A stretch of 64,000 nt of DNA from Escherichia phage vB_EcoM_G4507, in the sequence record NC_054919.1; one strand, given 5' to 3'. Shown piece by piece: positions 7,276 through 53,983 of this stretch. Each line of letters opens with the position of its first letter. The first letter of the stretch is position 1. Below the pieces are notes generated by a model. It did no database searches and was not told the origin of the DNA. It was given only the letters and a program-made list of their open reading frames with translations. The position numbers and the translations under genes were made by a program.

Positions 7276-8841
7276 ATGACTATCAAAACTAAAGCTGAAC
7301 TTTTGAACAAATGGAAGCCATTACTGGAAGGTGAAGGTTTACCGGAAATTGCTAATAGCAAACAAGCGATTATCGCTAAAATCTTTGAAAACCAGGAAAA
7401 AGATTTCCAGACAGCTCCGGAATATAAAGACGAAAAAATTGCTCAGGCATTCGGTTCTTTCTTAACAGAAGCTGAAATCGGTGGTGACCACGGTTACAAT
7501 GCTACCAACATCGCCGCAGGTCAGACTTCTGGCGCAGTAACTCAGATTGGCCCAGCTGTTATGGGTATGGTACGTCGTGCTATTCCTAACCTGATTGCTT
7601 TCGATATTTGTGGTGTTCAGCCAATGAACAGCCCGACTGGCCAGGTATTCGCGCTGCGCGCAGTATATGGTAAAGATCCAATCGCTTCCGGCGCTAAAGA
7701 AGCATTCCACCCAATGTATGGTCCAGATGCAATGTTCTCTGGTCAGGGTGCTGCTAAGAAATTCGCTGCTTTGAAAGCAAGTGATACTCTTGAAGTCGGA
7801 ACTATTTACACTCACTTCTTCCAGGAAACTGGTACAGTATATCTGCAAGCTACAGCAGCTAAACAAATTGATTCAGGCGCATCTGACGCAGACAAATTAG
7901 ATGCTGAAATTAAGAAACAAATGGAAGCTGGTGTACTGGTAGAAATCGCTGAAGGTATGGCTACTTCTATCGCTGAACTTCAGGAAGGTTTCAACGGTTC
8001 TACCGATAACCCATGGAATGAAATGGGCTTCCGTATCGATAAACAAGTTATCGAAGCTAAATCTCGTCAGCTGAAAGCTGCTTACTCTATTGAATTAGCA
8101 CAAGACCTTCGCGCTGTTCACGGTATGGATGCTGATGCTGAACTGTCTGGTATTCTGGCTACCGAAATTATGCTGGAAATCAACCGCGAAGTTGTTGATT
8201 GGATTAACTACTCCGCTCAGGTTGGTAAATCTGGTATGACCCTGACTCCGGGTTCTAAAGCTGGTGTATTTGACTTCCAGGACCCAATCGATATTCGTGG
8301 TGCTCGCTGGGCAGGTGAATCCTTTAAAGCTCTGTTGTTCCAGATTGACAAAGAAGCAGTTGAAATTGCTCGTCAGACTGGTCGCGGCGAAGGTAACTTC
8401 ATTATCGCTTCCCGTAACGTAGTTAACGTTCTGGCTTCAGTTGATACCGGCATTTCTTATGCTGCACAAGGTCTGGCTACTGGCTTTAACACTGATACTA
8501 CCAAGTCAGTATTTGCTGGTGTTCTGGGTGGTAAATACCGTGTATATATCGACCAGTATGCTAAACAGGATTATTTCACCGTAGGTTATAAAGGTCCGAA
8601 CGAAATGGATGCTGGTATTTACTATGCTCCATATGTAGCTCTGACTCCGCTGCGTGGTTCTGATCCGAAGAACTTCCAACCGGTAATGGGATTCAAAACT
8701 CGTTACGGTATCGGTATCAACCCATTTGCAGAATCCGCTGCTCAGGCTCCGGCTTCTCGCATCCAGAGCGGTATGCCTTCTATTCTGAATAGCCTTGGTA
8801 AAAACGCTTACTTCCGCCGTGTATATGTTAAAGGTATCTAA
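7276..8841 (+). CDS. 23: major capsid protein gp23
   Basis: 521-aa ORF MTIKTKAELLNKWKPLLEGEGLPEIANSKQAIIAKIFENQEKDFQ...; T4 gp23-like over the full length. Confidence 0.97.
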   Translation: MTIKTKAELLNKWKPLLEGEGLPEIANSKQAIIAKIFENQEKDFQTAPEYKDEKIAQAFGSFLTEAEIGGDHGYNATNIAAGQTSGAVTQIGPAVMGMVRRAIPNLIAFDICGVQPMNSPTGQVFALRAVYGKDPIASGAKEAFHPMYGPDAMFSGQGAAKKFAALKASDTLEVGTIYTHFFQETGTVYLQATAAKQIDSGASDADKLDAEIKKQMEAGVLVEIAEGMATSIAELQEGFNGSTDNPWNEMGFRIDKQVIEAKSRQLKAAYSIELAQDLRAVHGMDADAELSGILATEIMLEINREVVDWINYSAQVGKSGMTLTPGSKAGVFDFQDPIDIRGARWAGESFKALLFQIDKEAVEIARQTGRGEGNFIIASRNVVNVLASVDTGISYAAQGLATGFNTDTTKSVFAGVLGGKYRVYIDQYAKQDYFTVGYKGPNEMDAGIYYAPYVALTPLRGSDPKNFQPVMGFKTRYGIGINPFAESAAQAPASRIQSGMPSILNSLGKNAYFRRVYVKGI

Positions 8842-8924: not shown

Positions 8925-10208
8925 ATGGCTAAAATCAACGAACTTCTGCGCGAATCAACCACAACGAATAGCAACTCAATCGGTCGCCCAAATCTCGTTG
9001 CTTTGACTCGCGCTACCACTAAATTAATATATTCTGACATTGTAGCAACGCAAAGAACTAATCAACCTGTTGCTGCTTTTTATGGTATCAAATACCTTAA
9101 CCCGGATAACGAATTTACATTTAAAACTGGTGCTACTTACGCCGGCGAAGCTGGATATGTAGACCGAGAACAAATCACAGAATTAACAGAAGAGTCTAAA
9201 TTAACTCTCAATAAGGGCGATTTATTCAAATATAATAATATCGTTTATAAAGTATTAGAAGATACACCATTTGCTGATATTGAAGAAAGCGATTTAGAAT
9301 TAGCTCTTCAGATTGCAATTGTTCTTTTAAAGGTTCGTCTATTTTCTGACGCAGCGTCAACAAGCAAATTTGAAAGCTCTGATAGTGAAATTGCGGATGC
9401 TAGATTCCAGATTAATAAATGGCAAACCGCAGTTAAATCTCGTAAACTTAAAACTGGTATCACAGTTGAATTAGCACAAGATTTAGAAGCAAATGGATTC
9501 GATGCTCCTAATTTCTTGGAAGATTTGCTTGCAACCGAAATGGCAGATGAAATCAATAAAGATATTCTGCAGTCTTTGATTACAGTGTCAAAACGCTATA
9601 AAGTTACAGGAATTACTGATACTGGATTCATCGATTTGAGTTATGCATCTGCACCTGAAGCTGGTCGTTCATTATACCGAATGGTATGTGAAATGGTTTC
9701 ACATATCCAGAAAGAATCAACTTATACAGCAACGTTCTGTGTTGCTTCAGCTCGTGCCGCTGCGATTCTTGCTGCATCAGGTTGGTTAAAACATAAACCA
9801 GAAGATGACAAATATCTTTCACAAAATGCCTACGGGTTCTTAGCTAATGGTTTACCGCTTTATTGCGATACCAACAGCCCATTAGATTATGTAATCGTTG
9901 GCGTAGTAGAAAATATCGGTGAAAAAGAAATTGTTGGATCAATTTTCTATGCTCCGTATACAGAAGGTCTTGACTTAGATGACCCTGAACATGTAGGTGC
10001 ATTTAAAGTTGTAGTTGATCCAGAAAGTTTGCAGCCATCTATCGGTTTATTAGTTAGATATGCTTTATCTGCAAATCCTTACACTGTAGCAAAAGATGAA
10101 AAAGAAGCAAGAGTAATTGATGGTGGAGACATGGATAAAATGGCGGGTCGTTCAGATTTGTCTGTTTTATTAGGTGTTAAGCTACCAAAAATTATCATTG
10201 ATGAATAA
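8925..10208 (+). CDS. 24: head vertex protein gp24
   Basis: 427-aa ORF, gp23 paralog by position; late promoter TATAAATA at 8890-8897; synteny. Confidence 0.93.
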   Translation: MAKINELLRESTTTNSNSIGRPNLVALTRATTKLIYSDIVATQRTNQPVAAFYGIKYLNPDNEFTFKTGATYAGEAGYVDREQITELTEESKLTLNKGDLFKYNNIVYKVLEDTPFADIEESDLELALQIAIVLLKVRLFSDAASTSKFESSDSEIADARFQINKWQTAVKSRKLKTGITVELAQDLEANGFDAPNFLEDLLATEMADEINKDILQSLITVSKRYKVTGITDTGFIDLSYASAPEAGRSLYRMVCEMVSHIQKESTYTATFCVASARAAAILAASGWLKHKPEDDKYLSQNAYGFLANGLPLYCDTNSPLDYVIVGVVENIGEKEIVGSIFYAPYTEGLDLDDPEHVGAFKVVVDPESLQPSIGLLVRYALSANPYTVAKDEKEARVIDGGDMDKMAGRSDLSVLLGVKLPKIIIDE

Positions 10209-10211
10209 AAC

Positions 10212-10233
10212 AAAGGGACCTTTCGGTCCCTTT
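10212..10233. terminator. bidirectional hairpin AAAGGGACC-UUUC-GGUCCCUUU between convergent genes 24 and rnlB
   Basis: 9-bp stem, symmetric A/U flanks, placed exactly between the two convergent stop codons. Confidence 0.6.
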
Positions 10234-11821: not shown

Positions 11822-13240
11822 TTATGGATAGGTATAGATGATACCAGTTTCTAAAGCAGTTTTATGAATGATGTATCCATTGCGTGATTCTTGAACATCA
11901 ACTTCTGGATAGTCTTTCATCATCTTCTGAAGAGTGTAACGATGCAGGTAGTATTTACTATCTGGATCTTCAGTTTTCCAATCTTTACCTTCTTCGGTCA
12001 TTTTTTGGATTTCATCCATAACCCACCAACCGCACCAGATATAAGCTGAAGTGCGATGTGGAAGAGGATGAACATAAGGCAATTCACCTTCTGGTTCCGG
12101 AGCAACTTTATCAGTTACCTGAACTTGGCCTGTTGCTTTAACTGTTTTACTATCATAGTCGGTTGCTGTAACGGTTGCAGTAACTTCAATAGTTTGACTT
12201 CCAATAGATGATGTATCAACCGTGTATACATTAGTTGATTCTTCTACAGGAGAAGAATCTTTCTTCCATGAATATTCGATTTGTGCTTCTTCTGGAGCAT
12301 CCGTAACATTAGCAGTAAATGTAGCCGAAGCATCTTGCTGAACGTTAATAGAAGGAGGAGTCAATGTAACCTGTGGATTCATTGTCTTCTTATTAACTGT
12401 TAATGATACTTCATTAGAAGTAACTTCCTTTTCATTGTAATTTTCAGCCGTTACTTGGGCTACGCATTTAATTCTTTTTACTCCACTTGTAGTTGGAGTA
12501 TAGTTAAATGTAGAGTTAGTTTCTCCACCAATTTGAGAATCATCTACATACCATTTATATGTAGCAGACGCTCCATCAGGTTGAGAAACCAAGGCAGCAG
12601 TAAATTGAACTGGGGTTCCAATTACTCCAGCTGGAGGACTATCAGGAGTTACTGCCAAGGTAGTTGTCTGCGTCTTTTTATTAACAGTCAGTGACACTTC
12701 ATTGGAAGTAACTTCCTTTGTATCATAATCTGTCGCGGTTACTTGAGCTACGCACTTAATTGTTTTAACTCCGCTTGCGTCAGGAGTGTAATTGAATGTA
12801 GTGCTAGTTGCTTCGCCCACAGGAGAACCGTCAACGTACCATTGATACGTAGCGTTTGCACCTGATGGCTGTGAAGCTAAGGCAGCGGTAAATTCAATTG
12901 GAGTTCCAATCACTCCAGCATCAGGGCTACCAGGAGTTACTGCCAAAGTAGTTGTTTGTGTCTTATTTTGAACTGTGATAGTTGTACTAATTTCAGCTGT
13001 TTCAGGTTCAGATTCTGCAACTTGATTGGTTGCAACTACTTTAATAGTCTTTTGACCGGCAGGTCCTTTTAGTACATAACTAAAAGTTGCTGACGTTTCT
13101 TCCTGTGGAGCGTCGTCTACAGTCCAAGCATATGTAATAGGTCCATCTCCAGTTTGACCACTGGGTGTAGCAGTAAACTGCTGAGTCTGATCTATAACTC
13201 CAGTAGGTGTTTTAGGAGTTATATCAACTGTAAAAGCCAT
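11822..13240 (-). CDS. hoc: highly immunogenic outer capsid protein Hoc, with four Ig-like domains
   Basis: 472-aa ORF; two adjacent ~96-aa modules (KTQTTTLAVTP...EVTSNEVSLTVNK) are near-identical; conserved C-terminal capsid-binding region; synteny. Confidence 0.9.
   Translation of the reverse strand: MAFTVDITPKTPTGVIDQTQQFTATPSGQTGDGPITYAWTVDDAPQEETSATFSYVLKGPAGQKTIKVVATNQVAESEPETAEISTTITVQNKTQTTTLAVTPGSPDAGVIGTPIEFTAALASQPSGANATYQWYVDGSPVGEATSTTFNYTPDASGVKTIKCVAQVTATDYDTKEVTSNEVSLTVNKKTQTTTLAVTPDSPPAGVIGTPVQFTAALVSQPDGASATYKWYVDDSQIGGETNSTFNYTPTTSGVKRIKCVAQVTAENYNEKEVTSNEVSLTVNKKTMNPQVTLTPPSINVQQDASATFTANVTDAPEEAQIEYSWKKDSSPVEESTNVYTVDTSSIGSQTIEVTATVTATDYDSKTVKATGQVQVTDKVAPEPEGELPYVHPLPHRTSAYIWCGWWVMDEIQKMTEEGKDWKTEDPDSKYYLHRYTLQKMMKDYPEVDVQESRNGYIIHKTALETGIIYTYP
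12389..12964 (-). repeat. tandem duplication of two ~288-bp units inside hoc (Ig-like domains 2 and 3)
   Basis: Protein residues 93-188 and 189-284 are near-identical; DNA units at 12389-12676 and 12677-12964 computed from the ORF frame. Confidence 0.7.
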
Positions 13241-24636: not shown

Positions 24637-24658
24637 ATGGGGACCTTTCGGTCCCCAT
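24637..24658. terminator. bidirectional hairpin AUGGGGACC-UUUC-GGUCCCCAU between gene 54 and the convergent 96-aa ORF
   Basis: 9-bp perfect stem between two convergent stop codons. Confidence 0.6.
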
Positions 24659-24662
24659 ATTT

Positions 24663-24953
24663 TTATTTACGGAATGAAATGAAAGCAGCAACTGAAGCAA
24701 CTAAACTGTCTTCAATATAAACTTCAATTTTTACCGGAGCTTCTGACTCAAATTTACCTGTTACTACACCCTGAAAAATACTTTCAGTCTGTTCTGGCTT
24801 TGAAAAATTTTCAGAAGGAAAAATTCCGAACTTTTTATCTGTTCCAAAAATTTTGATAAATTCATCGTAAACTGCTTCATTAAAAGCATTATCAGCAGGA
24901 ATAACGCCTTCAACTACAAGTTCTTGACCTAAAAAGCGCAAAGAAGATTTCAT
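24663..24953 (-). CDS. hypothetical 96-aa protein driven by the duplicated early-promoter cassette
   Basis: ORF with GAGGA Shine-Dalgarno 9 nt upstream; GTTTAC-type promoter directly upstream; no recognisable domain. Confidence 0.6.
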   Translation of the reverse strand: MKSSLRFLGQELVVEGVIPADNAFNEAVYDEFIKIFGTDKKFGIFPSENFSKPEQTESIFQGVVTGKFESEAPVKIEVYIEDSLVASVAAFISFRK

Positions 24954-24960
24954 TTTGTGT

Positions 24961-25014
24961 TCCTCATGTTATGTCAGTAAGACTACTATAACACAACACG
25001 AGGGACTTGTAAAC
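24961..25014 (-). promoter_or_regulatory. 54-bp early-promoter plus leader cassette, copy 1
   Basis: Minus strand GTTTACAAGTCCCTCGTGTTGTGTTATAGTAGTCTTACTGACATAACATGAGGA: GTTTAC (-35), TATAGT/TTATAG (-10), GAGGA SD. Matches 40215-40268 at 53 of 54 positions. Confidence 0.6.
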
Positions 25015-27071
25015 TACATCTTGAACTTTTTAGACATTCCGTTGATGTTAACCAAAGAAGCTAAGATTTGAGAAACTTCGTTTTCCTCTTCTTTTGATTC
25101 TTCTACAAGGAATTGATTAAATCCAGCCATTGGACGAACTTCACCAGTTTCCATTAGATGGTCGCCATCATATACTGATTCTTCTAATTGTTCAGAAGGA
25201 GGAACGATTGTACCTTCGATTAGATACTTGTTATAAGCAGTTTCTTTCATAAAGTAAGTACTTACTTTATTAATCTTCAGTAAAATTCCACGTGGTAGAA
25301 TAACTTCAGCTTCTGACGGAAATCCTGATAAATGACCCGGAACGATAACTTTGATTCGCTCAGCTCCTTTAATTACCATACCCACGCTAGTTTCAGCATC
25401 TTCATTAGCATATGTAGAATGACTACCCATATGCATCAAATCTTCTGCATCAACGGAACCTTCTCCTTCACCAGAAAATACTGCGCCGGAATCATCTAGA
25501 GCCATATAGTTTTTACCATGCTCACCGAAGATATTTGGTTTAAGCGATGTGGATACGAAGTTCTTGAAATAGAACATTTTATTTTCAATGTTATGACGCA
25601 AAGTTTTAAAGGTAACTTCTTGTCCACGGTAAAGTGTAGTTCCTGGAGGAAGAACTGAACCTTTAGCGAATGCAGAATCAAGCGTCTCAATATGTTTAAT
25701 AGCTCGTTCCATATATTCTTCACGGGTAGAATCTGGTTTACCCAAAAGGAACGAGTTCATTTCAACATATGAATCTGCACAATAATCTTCAATTACATCA
25801 GATTCAGCTTGAGTTAATCCTTTTGGAGTTACTTCAGTGCTTGCGTATTCATATGCCTGAGCAGCAGATTCATTAATCAATTTATAAATGCCATTCATGA
25901 CAAATTGAATAATAGCTGTCTTTTCATCTGGCGTAGCTTTAGAACCTTTAACCAAATCATTGATAATTTTCTTAATAACATCAAAGCTATTAGAAATATT
26001 AATATCAGCAAGATCGCTTAAAATTTTATCAGTCTTATAATCAAAGAATTCTTTATTCTTTAAATATTCTTGAGAACCTTGATATGTTATATCGCTCTGT
26101 AACTTGATAGATGGATCACGTAAACGTGCATGGGCTAATGCAATATGATTTCGGAAGCTTTCGAGTTCATAATCACTAGATTTAAAACGAGAAGCGCTTC
26201 TCATACCGCCTATAGCTCCTTTGCTGAAGTTTGAACCAATTTGAATAACGCCAGAGTTCATTGGTCCTTCTGCTTTATACACCGGAACTTTAGATTCAAA
26301 CTCTTGATATTTCTTAGCAGCGAAGCTATCACCCTGAAGTGAAGCATCAACAGTAGAATATTGAGCTTGTGCTGCTAATCGACGACTAATTTTAGTTTTC
26401 TGAATAACAGCTTGGTCCGTGCGCTTATCATTTTCTAAAGCAATAGAAGCAGCAACAGCAACAGCTTTAGGAACAGCATTACCTGTTTTAACATCTACAT
26501 AAACATCACCAACCTTTGATTCAACTTTTGTGAATAACTCAGTTGAAATAGGAGGTACACCTGGAATGTCTTCTAAATTGGCATTTTTACGATAAACCAT
26601 AATATATGCGTACTTTTTATCATAATCCCAGATTTCCTTTAAAAGAACATATCGACCTGCTCCTTTAGTACGTACTAAACGGTCAGCAATAACTTGCATT
26701 TGACGAGCAGCGCCATTTGTTTTACTCTTTAGTACGCGGAATAAGCATGCATCAATTTTATACTGTTTCATTGTTTGAAGAGCAGTATCAAAAACAGCGT
26801 TAATGACGCCAATTGGATTTCCACCCAAGTTTCTAAGTTTAACCAGTGATAATTTCTCGTTGACACCTATCATTACGATATGCATCATTTTATCGCCCGG
26901 CTTAACGTTTTTATTTGTATCACCTCCAGAGGTGTATGTACAAAATCTAAATCCAGGAAGCACGCTTTCTTCGCCGGCTTGAATAGCAAAAATTTGAGGT
27001 ATTTTATGCTTAGGATTTAAGTTAACAACCGGCGCCGAAGCGCCGTCAAATAATTCTGTAATAAGTTCCAT
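25014..27071 (-). CDS. Alt-like ADP-ribosyltransferase paralog
   Basis: 685 aa; N-terminus MELITELFDGASAPVVNLNPKHKIPQIF and ART motifs TLYRGQ, FYFKNFVSTSL, SEAEVILPRG align with the adjacent alt gene; ATG 3 nt after the alt stop. Confidence 0.85.
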   Translation of the reverse strand: MELITELFDGASAPVVNLNPKHKIPQIFAIQAGEESVLPGFRFCTYTSGGDTNKNVKPGDKMMHIVMIGVNEKLSLVKLRNLGGNPIGVINAVFDTALQTMKQYKIDACLFRVLKSKTNGAARQMQVIADRLVRTKGAGRYVLLKEIWDYDKKYAYIMVYRKNANLEDIPGVPPISTELFTKVESKVGDVYVDVKTGNAVPKAVAVAASIALENDKRTDQAVIQKTKISRRLAAQAQYSTVDASLQGDSFAAKKYQEFESKVPVYKAEGPMNSGVIQIGSNFSKGAIGGMRSASRFKSSDYELESFRNHIALAHARLRDPSIKLQSDITYQGSQEYLKNKEFFDYKTDKILSDLADINISNSFDVIKKIINDLVKGSKATPDEKTAIIQFVMNGIYKLINESAAQAYEYASTEVTPKGLTQAESDVIEDYCADSYVEMNSFLLGKPDSTREEYMERAIKHIETLDSAFAKGSVLPPGTTLYRGQEVTFKTLRHNIENKMFYFKNFVSTSLKPNIFGEHGKNYMALDDSGAVFSGEGEGSVDAEDLMHMGSHSTYANEDAETSVGMVIKGAERIKVIVPGHLSGFPSEAEVILPRGILLKINKVSTYFMKETAYNKYLIEGTIVPPSEQLEESVYDGDHLMETGEVRPMAGFNQFLVEESKEEENEVSQILASLVNINGMSKKFKM

Positions 27072-27074
27072 GAT

Positions 27075-29126
27075 TTATCCTTGAACGAACTTGTAAGGCA
27101 TGTTTGTAATATCTATGCAAGACGCAATAATTCCAAGAGATGATTCTACTTTCTGTTTAACATTTGATGAAACAAATGATGCAAAGTCAACTCTATCTTC
27201 TATATCACCTGTCATTGTAACTACTTCGCCGGTTTCCATTAAACGGTCACCGTCATAAATTACTGATTCGGTGAGTTCTTCGGTGGTCATAACTTCAGCT
27301 TGAATAAGCTTGTTGTTAGTTTTGACTGTTCCATCATTGTAAGATGCATCAGTTATTTTATTAACTTTGACCATTAATCCACGTGGCAAAATGACTTCCA
27401 TTTCATTTGAAGGCGCTAAACTTCCACCGGGTAAAACAACATTGACTTTATCAGCCCCAGTAATAACCCATCCAATTCCGACTAAATTATCGCTAGAATT
27501 AACAAGCCCTTCATCATTTTTATCGATAGAAATGTTTAGACGCTTTTCATCTGGTAAAACACCAACAGCTGAATCAGTCATCCAAGTACCAAAAATGTTT
27601 GGATATAATGATGTTGATACAAAATTTCTAAAATAAAAAACTCGATTTTTTACCATTGCTTCGTATATTGAAGGTAACATTCGTTGTGAACGATACAAAG
27701 TAATACCTTTTGGTAATCGTTCACCATTTTTAAAGGCTGAATCTAAATTATCAATAGCTTTTTCTATGTCAGATGCTGTCAAAATACTTGTACGCTCATC
27801 TGGATTATATAATCCCAAAAGAGCATTATTTATGTCTACATATCCTGAACCTACGTATTCACGAATTCCGCGTTTTTGTGCTGGTGTGTATTTAGATGAA
27901 TCTTTATTTTCGACTATAGGATGTAATGACCATCCAGCTGTAAGAGCATATCCACGTAATTCTCTTCGAATAATCTTTGTTTTTATTGCATTCCAAGAAT
28001 TTTGTACTAACTCATTTGCAGCATCTTGGTTTAAATGCGAATGTTTGTTAATATTTCTTTCAAACCAAGCACCTTTATATTTTTCTAAAGTATTATCGAC
28101 GATAGAAGCAATAGTTTCTAAAGTTTTTATTGAAGTAATAGATTCTTTTCGTAATTTTTCTAAAGCTTTATTTTTTATTTCTGCATTAATAATGGATTCT
28201 TTATCTTCAGGAATTATAGAAGCTTCTCTGAATGCCATCCCAGCTGTAACACTGCTAAGAGCATTCTCTAGTGCAAATCCTGAAGTAGAAATTACCGTTA
28301 ATTCATTAGAATCAGAAATTAAAGGCGCATCAGCGGGTTTATTTAATTCTGCTGCTGAAGCCTCAAATTTTTGAAACATCGGTGTTTCAAATCTAGAAGA
28401 TTCCAATGACTGACTTTGTGCAATTGCTCTACGGGAAATTTTAACTTTAACGATTACAGCTTGGTCAGAACGTTTATCATTTTCTTGTGCAATAGATGCT
28501 GCAATTGCCTCATTTTTGGTTACTTGAGCTCCGGTATCTTTATTGATATAAACATCACCGACCTTCGATTCAACTTTAGTAAAGAGCTCGGTACTAATTT
28601 CCGGAACTCCTGGAATGTCTTCTAGTGATACATTTTTGCGATGTATAAGAATATATGCATACTTTTTATCATAATCCCAGAGTTCCTTAAGAAGGACGTA
28701 TCTGCCACCTGAACGACTACGGATAAGTCTATCAGCAATAACTTGAATTTGTCGAGCTTGACCAGCGGTTTTAGACTTAAGAATACGAAGCATACAGGCA
28801 TCAATTTTATACTGACGCATTGTTTGCATCGCAACAGTAAAAACTGAATTGATATAATTAATTGGGCTTGGACCAAGACCTTTTAATTTAGCAATTGAAC
28901 CTTTAGCAGTTAATGTAAAAGGAACAATATGCATCATTTTATCGCCCATCTTTAAATCGCGATTAGTATCACCTCCAGATGTATAGGTACATAAACGAAA
29001 GCCTGGTTGTTCAATTGCATCATCAACATGAACTGAAAAAATTTGCGGTATTTTCTTCTTTGGATTTAAGTTTGTAATCGGAAGAGTAGTATCTTCGTCA
29101 AATAATTCTGTAATAAGTTCCATCAT
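27075..29126 (-). CDS. alt: Alt ADP-ribosyltransferase (capsid-packaged, injected)
   Basis: 683 aa; MMELITELFDEDTTLPITNLNPKKKIPQIF...; R-S-ExE motifs ITLYRSQ, FYFRNFVSTSL, NEMEVILPRG; late promoter upstream. Confidence 0.9.
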   Translation of the reverse strand: MMELITELFDEDTTLPITNLNPKKKIPQIFSVHVDDAIEQPGFRLCTYTSGGDTNRDLKMGDKMMHIVPFTLTAKGSIAKLKGLGPSPINYINSVFTVAMQTMRQYKIDACMLRILKSKTAGQARQIQVIADRLIRSRSGGRYVLLKELWDYDKKYAYILIHRKNVSLEDIPGVPEISTELFTKVESKVGDVYINKDTGAQVTKNEAIAASIAQENDKRSDQAVIVKVKISRRAIAQSQSLESSRFETPMFQKFEASAAELNKPADAPLISDSNELTVISTSGFALENALSSVTAGMAFREASIIPEDKESIINAEIKNKALEKLRKESITSIKTLETIASIVDNTLEKYKGAWFERNINKHSHLNQDAANELVQNSWNAIKTKIIRRELRGYALTAGWSLHPIVENKDSSKYTPAQKRGIREYVGSGYVDINNALLGLYNPDERTSILTASDIEKAIDNLDSAFKNGERLPKGITLYRSQRMLPSIYEAMVKNRVFYFRNFVSTSLYPNIFGTWMTDSAVGVLPDEKRLNISIDKNDEGLVNSSDNLVGIGWVITGADKVNVVLPGGSLAPSNEMEVILPRGLMVKVNKITDASYNDGTVKTNNKLIQAEVMTTEELTESVIYDGDRLMETGEVVTMTGDIEDRVDFASFVSSNVKQKVESSLGIIASCIDITNMPYKFVQG

Positions 29127-39363: not shown

Positions 39364-39713
39364 TTAGAAAGGTCCTGGATGTCTTCTGCTAACTTGTTGA
39401 AGGAGTTGTTAATTTGTTTTTCAACCAATCCTGGCTTATGAGCCACCACATCCGCCTTCTTTGCGTCTTTGCGCAGTTTTTCATTTTCACGCTCAATAGC
39501 AGCAATTGCCTCACGATTTTTATTATTCATCGCATCAATATAATTATACTGAATTCGCAAATTATTTAATGCTAAAGCGTTTTCATTGGCTGTTTTTGTA
39601 ATTTCGGTAACTGATGTTTCTAATCTTTCTACCTTATTTTTTAAAATAATAGATGTTCCGCCAAATGCTATTACAAGTAATAGCAATCCAGCTGTAAAAT
39701 TACTTACATGCAT
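39360..39713 (-). CDS. pseT.3: inner-membrane spanin (Rz equivalent)
   Basis: 117 aa; N-terminal transmembrane helix GLLLLVIAFGGTSIIL followed by coiled-coil-prone periplasmic region; coupled to the o-spanin gene. Confidence 0.7.
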   Translation of the reverse strand: MHVSNFTAGLLLLVIAFGGTSIILKNKVERLETSVTEITKTANENALALNNLRIQYNYIDAMNNKNREAIAAIERENEKLRKDAKKADVVAHKPGLVEKQINNSFNKLAEDIQDLSK

Positions 39714-40210
39714 AAAGTTTTAATAACCTCTATAATATCGTCTTGAGAAAGACCGTTAATTAAAATATGATGTTCAGCTGGAGATTTAGAAATTTTAAAG
39801 CATGCCTCAACATCTTCTGCCATATCCGATGCACTACGATTTGGATTACTAATCCCAAGGCGATGTTTTCCCGTCAAAGGATTAACGATGATATAGCATT
39901 TGCAGCTATTGATATGAACATTGGGTTGAGTCTGATTAATGAACACTTCACAATCATACTTAGCGAGTTGATTTTCTAAAAAGACTTTCATCTCTTCAAC
40001 CGCATCAGGAAGCATATCACGGGCTTGCTCAAGACGACGATTTCGATATTCTTTAATGGTCGTTTTCCGCTTGACTTGTTTAGCTAAATCTTTCTTAAGA
40101 TCAGTGATATATCCAACTCGACGATTTCCTTTAAATACAGAAATCCCATCTGTAGTATCACCGTATGCTTCAACGACCATTTCAGTAGTAATACGCTGCA
40201 AATCCATCAT
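39704..40210 (-). CDS. alc: Alc, host transcription unfoldase / terminator on cytosine DNA
   Basis: 168-aa ORF between the spanin genes and rnlA; length and position match T4 alc as recalled; driven by early-promoter cassette copy 2. Confidence 0.8.
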   Translation of the reverse strand: MMDLQRITTEMVVEAYGDTTDGISVFKGNRRVGYITDLKKDLAKQVKRKTTIKEYRNRRLEQARDMLPDAVEEMKVFLENQLAKYDCEVFINQTQPNVHINSCKCYIIVNPLTGKHRLGISNPNRSASDMAEDVEACFKISKSPAEHHILINGLSQDDIIEVIKTLCM

Positions 40211-40214
40211 AAAG

Positions 40215-40268
40215 TCCTCATGTTATGCCAGTAAGACTACTATAACACAACACGAGGGACTTGTAAAC
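40215..40268 (-). promoter_or_regulatory. 54-bp early-promoter plus leader cassette, copy 2 (upstream of alc)
   Basis: Identical to 24961-25014 except one transition; GTTTAC -35 begins 3 nt after the rnlA stop; GAGGA SD 4 nt before the alc ATG. Confidence 0.6.
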
Positions 40269-40271
40269 AGC

Positions 40272-41859
<1,588 letters not shown>

Positions 41860-49651: not shown

Positions 49652-49708
49652 TTTATTCTCCTTAGTTGATAAGGCTATAGTATCACTACCATAGCCTGTT
49701 GTAAACAA

Positions 49709-53953: not shown

Positions 53954-53983
53954 ATTATATACTATCTAAATCTTAAAGTAAAC
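53954..53983 (-). promoter_or_regulatory. early promoter for rnh (GTTTAC-N18-TATAAT), back-to-back with the gene 34 late promoter
   Basis: Minus strand GTTTAC (53983-53978), 18-nt spacer, TATAAT (53959-53954). Confidence 0.45.

Follow-up and report, generated by a model that had tools for sequence, protein, structure and literature searches.

The closest described counterparts of the element studied here are the promoter-early stem-loops (PeSLs) of T4-type phages, which combine an early promoter of the sigma-70 type, a stem-loop that overlaps the -10 box, and a Shine-Dalgarno (SD) sequence and ATG at the 3' end (PMC2839356, PMC4122927). The PeSL stem-loops of phages RB49 and phi1 lie mostly between the -35 and -10 boxes or overlap the -10 box and were read as terminators or attenuators (Arbiol et al., PMC2839356). 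Exchanges and mini-circles mediated by PeSLs have been documented in RB49 and phi1 and proposed for PST and T4 (PMC2839356, PMC4122927). For the T4 genes e, soc, 49, and I-TevI, long transcripts fold a hairpin over the initiation region, and translatable RNA comes from an internal late promoter (Uzan and Miller, PMC3014915). Here we describe a 54-nucleotide (nt) cassette that occurs twice, once before alt.-3 and once before alc, in a 64,000-nt stretch (the window) of Escherichia phage vB_EcoM_G4507 (NC_054919.1), a T4-like Tequatrovirus of the Straboviridae. We read the two copies as a PeSL-type cassette in which an early promoter is built into a hairpin that masks the SD, gating translation to RNA initiated by the cassette itself; it would have originated at alc and been transplanted to alt.-3. 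We put the probability of this reading at roughly 0.55.

The two copies, read directly from the window, match at 53 of 54 positions, and both lie on the minus strand:

24961..25014, minus strand: cassette copy 1, before alt.-3, identical to copy 2 at 53/54 positions
40215..40268, minus strand: cassette copy 2, before alc, located by direct reading, pattern search, and repeat finder

Cassette position 1 is the G of GTTTAC (25014 / 40268), and position 54 is the last A of GAGGA (24961 / 40215). The minus strand from 25014 to 24961 reads GTTTACAAGTCCCTCGTGTTGTGTTATAGTAGTCTTACTGACATAACATGAGGA, and the sole mismatch between the copies is at cassette position 41, which is A in copy 1 (ACTGAC) and G in copy 2 (ACTGGC). 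A pattern search allowing up to three mismatches returned only these two sites in the window, both on the minus strand (0 and 1 mismatch), and a repeat finder recovered the same pair as family D7 (54 nt, 98%). Chance origin was rejected, as 100 dinucleotide shuffles gave 0 matches. The pair and its shared orientation had been pointed out in a sequence-only reading of the window, and all three approaches confirm them; the motifs named there (a GTTTAC -35, a TATAGT -10, and a GAGGA SD for a minus-strand gene) are likewise present at both copies. That reading had also described a discrete promoter, leader, and SD cassette and not a duplicated gene, which agrees with the flanks of the two copies being unrelated on either side. 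Its argument that the identity goes beyond what a promoter consensus demands holds as well: when the eight GTTTAC-type minus-strand early promoters of the window are aligned at the -35 box, the other pairings are identical at 15-32 of 54 positions versus 53/54 for the cassette pair, which rules out generic early-promoter conservation as the cause.

Both copies are also present in phage T4 (NC_000866), at about 123,040-123,093 and 136,283-136,336, again with 53/54 identical positions. A blastn search with the copy-1 region matched 587 phage records (497 with at least 80% query coverage), nearly all of them in exactly two places, and the surroundings of copy 1 are 100% identical to those in vB_EcoM_G4498 and others. 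The cassette pair is a fixed feature of the genus Tequatrovirus, T4 included, and is not peculiar to this phage. A full-text literature search with the cassette sequence returned nothing relevant.

Each copy contains a TTTACA -35 box (within GTTTAC), a 17-nt spacer, and a TG-extended TATAGT -10 box, together matching the consensus at 10 of 12 positions, followed by a GAGGA SD located 6-8 nt ahead of the ATG of a minus-strand open reading frame (ORF). The internal promoter is of the early sigma-70 type; the late promoter TATAAATA was not found in the cassette. The 30 nt upstream of the -35 box belong to the coding sequence of the upstream gene and have ~67% and ~70% A+T (hand count), compared with a T4 average of 64.7% A+T (35.3% GC), and the A-tract of other window promoters is not present upstream of either cassette -35. 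The start site, A37, is predicted from sigma-70 geometry.

In the sense RNA, positions 12-25 (CCUCGUGUUGUGUU, in the promoter spacer) and positions 40-53 (GACAUAACAUGAGG, in the leader) form a predicted helix of 14 pairs in copy 1, three of which are G-U, and of up to 16 pairs in copy 2. The promoter and the two arms are arranged as follows:

25008..25013, minus strand: -35 box TTTACA of copy 1 (promoter scan)
24990..25003, minus strand: 5' arm of copy 1, positions 12-25, CCUCGUGUUGUGUU, in the promoter spacer (RNA fold)
24985..24990, minus strand: -10 box TATAGT of copy 1, at the top of the 5' arm and in the interior loop (promoter scan, RNA fold)
24978, minus strand: predicted start A37 of copy 1, 7 nt past the -10 box, in the hairpin loop (sigma-70 geometry)
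24962..24975, minus strand: 3' arm of copy 1, positions 40-53, GACAUAACAUGAGG, containing the SD (RNA fold)
40262..40267, minus strand: -35 box TTTACA of copy 2 (promoter scan)
40244..40260, minus strand: 5' arm of copy 2, positions 9-25 (RNA fold)
40239..40244, minus strand: -10 box TATAGT of copy 2 (promoter scan, RNA fold)
40232, minus strand: predicted start A37 of copy 2
40213..40229, minus strand: 3' arm of copy 2, positions 40-56, containing the SD GAGGA (RNA fold)

The -10 box and the predicted start A37 lie in the hairpin loop, which is ~14 nt long and has an inner mini-stem, and the GAGG of the SD is predicted to be paired in both the minimum free energy (MFE) and the centroid structures of both copies. 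The sequence-only reading had seen a weak leader stem, GUUAU...AUAAC; this stem is really the top of the 14-16 bp helix, and its GUUAU is at the -10 box, upstream of the predicted start. The sense RNA folds with an MFE of -24.6 kcal/mol in copy 1 (z -4.63) and -27.3 kcal/mol in copy 2 (z -4.94), and none of 200 shuffles was as stable. The antisense RNA reaches -17.2 kcal/mol (z -2.0) and -13.0 kcal/mol (z -1.5), respectively, and with DNA folding parameters the sense strand is again the more stable one. This strand asymmetry and the G-U pairs, which exist only in the sense strand, indicate a structure of the sense-strand RNA and argue against a DNA cruciform or an antisense structure.

Because the 5' arm lies upstream of the predicted start, the hairpin can form in read-through RNA only and not in RNA from the cassette's own promoter. 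For the alc SD, the computed probability of being unpaired is 0.75 when the RNA starts at A37 and 0.02 in read-through RNA. In the first minutes of infection, own-promoter RNA lacking the 5' arm would leave the ribosome-binding site free. Read-through RNA from the later-expressed genes upstream (rnlA into alc, alt into alt.-3) would carry both arms, and a helix of about -25 kcal/mol would bury the SD. Alc and Alt.-3 would be made essentially only from self-initiated immediate-early transcripts, by the logic described for genes e, soc, 49, and I-TevI with an early promoter instead of a late one. Our literature search found no experimental data on translation from long alc or alt.-3 transcripts.

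Several other identities for the hairpin were considered and rejected. A terminator scan made no call at either cassette, and no T-run comes after either hairpin (tail sequences AACACAAAAUG and CUUUAUGAUGG), which rules out a canonical intrinsic terminator. A known RNA family is excluded by a search against the Rfam 15 covariance models, which gave no match at copy 2 and at copy 1 only MIR868 (18 bits versus a gathering score of 200, a chance match). The GGAG motif of RegB sites is not in the cassette, whose SD is GAGGA, and a RegB site was rejected. A mini-ORF from the ATG within ...CATGAGGA was also rejected, as it has no SD upstream and its frame differs between the copies.

The cassette design recurs at alc across genera. 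The comparative work relied on the GenBank phage collection; 19-mer and protein-seeded scans of IMG/VR gave ~5 close relatives, and a 14-mer scan of viral contigs gave chance matches only. The order of rnlA, a ~60-nt intergenic region, alc, and pseT.3 is kept in every Tevenvirinae genus examined. We found the full design in seven phages: STP4-a (Gelderlandvirus), GF (Jiaodavirus), QL01 (Dhakavirus), X20 (Winklervirus), IME523 (Kanagawavirus), Clarke_MM3, and YOG. All seven have the same layout, in which the rnlA stop codon is followed by GTTTACA, an SD-complementary spacer, a -10 box in the loop, the SD, and the ATG. The arm sequences diverge yet stay complementary, as in the pairs UCUCCGUUU/AAACGGAGA, UCCUCAUCAG/CUGAUGAGGA, and UCUCCUCAU/AUGAGGAGA, and similarly in UCCCCAUUUUGUU/AACAAAAUGGGGA, CCUCGUUUGUU/AACAAACGAGG, and UCUCCAUUUGGUU/AACCAAAUGGAGA. 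The hairpin layout is thus present in eight representatives besides Tequatrovirus, from at least six named genera; the eighth is fHe-Yen9-01 (Tegunavirus), where the hairpin around the -10 box ends just upstream of the SD. With the Tequatrovirus cassette counted, the 3' arm includes the SD in eight of nine representatives. In more distantly related phages of Acinetobacter and Aeromonas, the alc locus is arranged in other ways.

Aligning the alc cassettes with MAFFT and RNAalifold understated the helix, since the alignment did not follow the structure (offsets of 3 columns for T4 and 1 for QL01), and an alignment-free test was used instead. The mean duplex energy is -18.0 kcal/mol when each spacer is paired with its own leader and -10.7 kcal/mol for cross pairings, and none of 20,000 permutations was as good. 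Judged from these sequences, compensatory evolution of the arms indicates that the alc hairpin is old and functional.

The alt.-3 locus presents a different picture. The order of alt, alt.-3, and gene 54 is conserved in the genera examined, and a different type of alt.-3 promoter is found in VR20 (Gaprivervirus), the Yersinia phage P8, IME341 (Dhakavirus), NHEP10 and NHEP36 (both Mosigvirus-like), and PhiKpNIH-6 (Marfavirus). These promoters have a small hairpin wholly within the spacer (e.g., CACCAC-AAGGAU-GUGGU); they still start with GTTTACAA and end with CAUGAGGA, and CATGAGGA is also shared. Outside the 54 bp, the flanks of the Tequatrovirus alt.-3 copy are homologous to the alt.-3 loci of the other genera (TTCAAAATGTA upstream and AACAAAATGAAATC downstream). 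Since the cassette design recurs at alc in other genera and another promoter type occupies their alt.-3 locus, the alt.-3 copy is most likely, judging by these sequences, a transplant of the alc cassette in an ancestor of Tequatrovirus. A core of ~40 nt (spacer, -10 box, and leader) would have replaced the resident alt.-3 core between GTTTACA and ATGAGGA, which the two loci already shared, presumably by ectopic recombination or conversion. The cassette would be ancestral at alc, and the two copies would since then have been evolving independently under purifying selection.

Related promoters were seen in Mosigvirus and Mosigvirus-like phages. The alc promoter of NHEP36 resembles that phage's own alt.-3 promoter, with GTTTACAAACAC..., TACTAT, ATCAACAACAYGAGGA, and a small intra-spacer hairpin (L140 ~240-305, L153 ~2610-2675), and may be a transplant opposite in direction to the Tequatrovirus one. 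The Mosigvirus phage vB_EcoM_G53 (L154 401-444) has the 3' half of the cassette (TATAGTAGTCcTACTGA..AACATGAGGA) and the alt.-3-specific flank AACACAAAATGA in a different hairpin promoter, which stands before an unrelated 66-amino-acid ORF adjoining ndd. The G53 case hints that pieces of the cassette move between loci and genera.

Variation within the genus was followed in ten Tequatrovirus genomes with both loci (the window, G4498, T4, T2, phiC600P9, and five IMG/VR genomes). Both loci have one and the same 54-nt consensus. Variants are confined to one or the other locus; the two copies of T2 differ at 6 of 54 positions (48/54 identical) and share only G32A. In these sequences there is no sign of concerted evolution, and the copies vary independently. 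All eight main-stem variants keep the pairing (8/8), for which a rough hand estimate under a typical transition bias gives a probability of ~0.007 by chance:

G40A: G-U becomes A-U
A41G: A-U becomes G-U
G16A, once at each locus: G-U becomes A-U
C15U: C-G becomes U-G
C13U: C-G becomes U-G
U49C: G-U becomes G-C
C12A: absorbed by a slide of the C11 bulge

The remaining variants (T27C, G29A, G32A, T33A, and C11T) map to loop, bulge, or -10 positions. The alc -10 box of vB_EcoM_G4498 is TACAGT and not TATAGT (L001 19300-19340), as it is in IMG 2974742932 and phiC600P9, and the interval between the two copies is 670 bp shorter in vB_EcoM_G4498 than in the window.

Hairpins of this kind are not confined to the pair. 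In six of the eight GTTTAC promoters of the window, the spacer is complementary to its own -10-proximal or leader sequence, and the hairpins enclose the -10 box. These are the promoters with the G of GTTTAC at 49706, 36947, 33928, and 33536 on the minus strand, plus 40268 and 25014; the promoters at 53983 and 50683 have no such hairpin. Own pairings range from -11 to -22 kcal/mol versus a cross mean of -7.9 kcal/mol (permutation p = 5e-5). The SD is inside the 3' arm in three cases (40267, 25013, and 33927, counted from the first T of the -35 box). The arms of the 33928 hairpin are UCCUUUGU and ACAAAGGA, and its 3' arm is the SD.

Both copies lie between the upstream gene's stop codon and the downstream gene's SD and ATG, in the following surroundings:

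24637..24658, both strands: bidirectional terminator hairpin at the end of the alt.-3 transcription unit, between alt.-3 and gene 54
24663..24953, minus strand: alt.-3 homologue, 96 amino acids, function unknown, downstream of copy 1
25014..27071, minus strand: second full-length alt paralogue, upstream of copy 1, its stop codon overlapping cassette position 1
39704..40210, minus strand: alc, inhibitor of host transcription, downstream of copy 2
40272..41396, minus strand: rnlA (gene 63), upstream of copy 2, its stop codon 4 nt before the cassette

Time-course omics of T4 class alt.-3 and alc both as early RNA and early protein, and their upstream neighbours as late (alt), middle RNA (alt.-1 and alt.-2), and early RNA but late protein (rnlA) (PMC9697503). 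These classes fit an active early promoter at each cassette and a shift of expression class across it; the omics data do not settle the mechanism.

No gene-content junction between genera falls at either copy, with rnlA|alc|pseT.3 and alt|alt.-3|54 kept in all genera examined. T4 and three other genomes have a 1.69-kb deletion within the second alt paralogue, which leaves alt.-1 and alt.-2 (T4 L002 1066-1451). Its right end is 19 nt upstream of copy 1, and the junction has its own ~9-nt overlap outside the repeat. By the loose usage of the PeSL papers, the deletion counts as lying near a PeSL, but the crossover did not take place in the repeat itself.

The cassettes share with PeSLs the sigma-70-type promoter (TTTACW-N17-TAYWAT in PST and T4), the -10-overlapping stem-loop, the SD, and the start codon, occur in the same phage group (T4, PST), and have parts at other loci (the G53 promoter beside ndd). 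The sequence-only reading had called them PeSL-like, and as a class assignment (early promoter, stem-loop over the -10 box, SD and ATG) this stands; the details of its stem and its supposition that the copies mark synteny breakpoints do not, since gene order on both sides is kept in every genus examined. Nor do they belong to a dispersed module-shuffling family, as it had supposed: they are a two-copy pair, and the exchanged unit would be the cassette itself. A search for further copies in T-even genomes and for variable gene boundaries beside them, which it had suggested, shows that T4 and about 500 relatives carry both copies, nearly all in exactly two places, with no variable gene boundary there between the Tevenvirinae genera examined. 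The cassettes differ from PeSLs in several further respects. They form a near-identical pair, whereas PeSLs are roughly 50 loosely similar motifs, and they flank conserved genes in conserved synteny, whereas PeSLs flank ORFans in hyperplastic regions. They appear to lack a distinct AT-rich tract immediately upstream of the -35 box, and their arms (GUCCCUCGUGUUGUGUU and GACAUAACAUGAGGAC) have no obvious AGNA...TCNT or G(n)...C(n). Their 3' arm is the SD itself, a feature that is not discussed in the PeSL papers, and there is no sign of gene-module exchange via these two copies.

The likeness to e, soc, 49, and I-TevI is one of logic. In both, RNA started upstream folds a helix over the SD or AUG (predicted for the cassettes), RNA from the internal promoter lacks the 5' strand, and the arrangement is kept among relatives. 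The polarity differs: the described genes have a late promoter, a block on early and middle read-through, and delayed expression, whereas the cassettes have an early sigma-70 promoter and a predicted block on later read-through, which would confine expression to the immediate-early period. Neither alc nor alt.-3 is on the list of such T4 hairpins given by Uzan and Miller (PMC3014915). With intrinsic terminators the cassettes share a stable, G+C-containing hairpin that immediately follows the upstream gene's stop codon; unlike them, they have no U-tract, have a long loop (~14 nt), and were not called by the scan.

Several observations weigh against translational gating by the cassettes or against their proposed history. 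The alc loci of the Mosigvirus NHEP36 and the Gaprivervirus TH40 are without this hairpin, and about 15 genomes underlie the proposed direction of the transplant. The own-promoter RNA of alt.-3 also has a low computed SD accessibility, 0.19, although in a weak structure of -4.5 kcal/mol, compared with -24.6 kcal/mol for the read-through hairpin. The helix stops short of the SD at three window promoters (36946, 33535, and 49705, again from the first T) and in the alc hairpin of fHe-Yen9-01, which argues that SD masking is not the general role of such stem-loops. One RB49 PeSL stem-loop had terminator-like activity, lowering lacZ expression as much as the rrnB T1 terminator (PMC2839356), and there is no known phenotype that requires Alc or Alt.-3 to be withheld late in infection.

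The RB49 result leads directly to the main rival, that the hairpin acts on transcription or RNA stability, as a terminator, attenuator, or insulator against read-through from rnlA or alt, or by protecting the 3' ends of the upstream mRNAs. This is the PeSL authors' own reading, and stem-loops that lie between the -35 and -10 elements or overlap the latter are their commonest arrangement (PMC2839356). It would also suit the six of eight window early promoters with hairpins, three of which have the SD outside the helix, and the shift of expression class across both cassettes. However, there is no T-run at either copy and no call by the terminator scan, and termination does not need the SD in the 3' arm, where eight of nine alc representatives have it. 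We consider this explanation unlikely as a replacement for translational gating, with the proviso that the two roles are not mutually exclusive.

The remaining alternatives concern why the copies are alike. They could be recombination linkers, PeSLs kept identical by ongoing exchange that mediate the insertion, deletion, or swapping of adjoining modules. Exchanges and mini-circles in RB49 and phi1 and their proposal for PST and T4 lend this some plausibility, as do the end of the T4 alt-paralogue deletion 19 nt from copy 1, the cassette 3' half at an unrelated locus in Mosigvirus G53, and a length of 54 bp, which is near the minimum for efficient T4 homologous recombination as PMC2839356 cites it from Singer et al. 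1982. Yet gene order is kept on both sides of both copies in all genera examined, variants are private to one copy without concerted evolution (the T2 copies are down to 48/54), and the T4 deletion used a separate ~9-nt overlap that lies outside the repeat. Of the ~500 matching genomes, nearly all have exactly two places, and recombination between the direct copies would delete or duplicate ~15 kb with genes 30 and 31, presumably giving inviable or unpackageable products. We regard linkers as improbable. Very improbable, in our estimate, is a shared trans-acting site, through which a phage or host protein or an RNase (RegA- or RegB-like, or RNase III, for example) that recognizes the common leader or hairpin would control alc and alt.-3 jointly. 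The two genes are in the same expression class, and the copies also agree in the loop and near the -10 box to a degree that pairing alone does not require, but the arms change freely across genera while remaining complementary, which speaks for a structure and not a sequence-specific site. The different cassette at alt.-3 in other genera, the lack of a GGAG RegB motif in the cassette, and the lack of an Rfam family match at either site also count against it.

Some further features of the window lie near these loci or outside them. It has two full-length tandem alt (ADP-ribosyltransferase) paralogues on the minus strand (25014-27071 and 27075-29123), and the terminator hairpin GGGACCTTTCGGTCCC, with a UUCG loop, is found at two late-gene ends (10215-10230 and 24637-24658). 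The minus-strand ORF at 11822-13240 (472 amino acids) contains a 288-nt (96-amino-acid) tandem repeat at 12384-12959 with 76% identity; it looks like Hoc with an extra immunoglobulin-like domain compared with T4 Hoc (~376 amino acids). A 77-nt stretch at 8029-8105 is 70% identical to 9405-9481 in two adjacent plus-strand genes, which by position we take to be probably the gp23 and gp24 capsid paralogues.

PeSLs as a class and hairpins with internal promoters that mask the translation initiation region are already published. What appears to be new is that the 3' arm at alc is the SD and is upheld by covariation in at least six named genera, together with the early-promoter polarity of the gate and the transplant of the cassette to alt.-3; the identity between the alc and alt.-3 copies may have been noticed before. 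The finding adds detail to a well-studied system and overturns nothing. A broader generalization, which we hold only tentatively and at somewhat less than even odds, is that the cassette is a portable "self-only" gate whose spacer encodes an anti-SD. The gene behind it would be silent on all read-through RNA, compensatory change would maintain it at alc across most Tevenvirinae, and its ~40-nt core would be transplantable via the invariant anchors GTTTACA and ATGAGGA, as at alt.-3 in Tequatrovirus and possibly in reverse in Mosigvirus. Many PeSL stem-loops would then be translational gates and not terminators. If gating by the cassettes is true, they would provide a compact, portable promoter-plus-insulator part for phage engineering. 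It would explain how immediate-early proteins, such as the host-transcription terminator Alc, are tied to the first minutes of infection despite later-expressed genes upstream on the same strand. It would also give the widespread promoter-embedded stem-loops (PeSLs) a concrete translational role.

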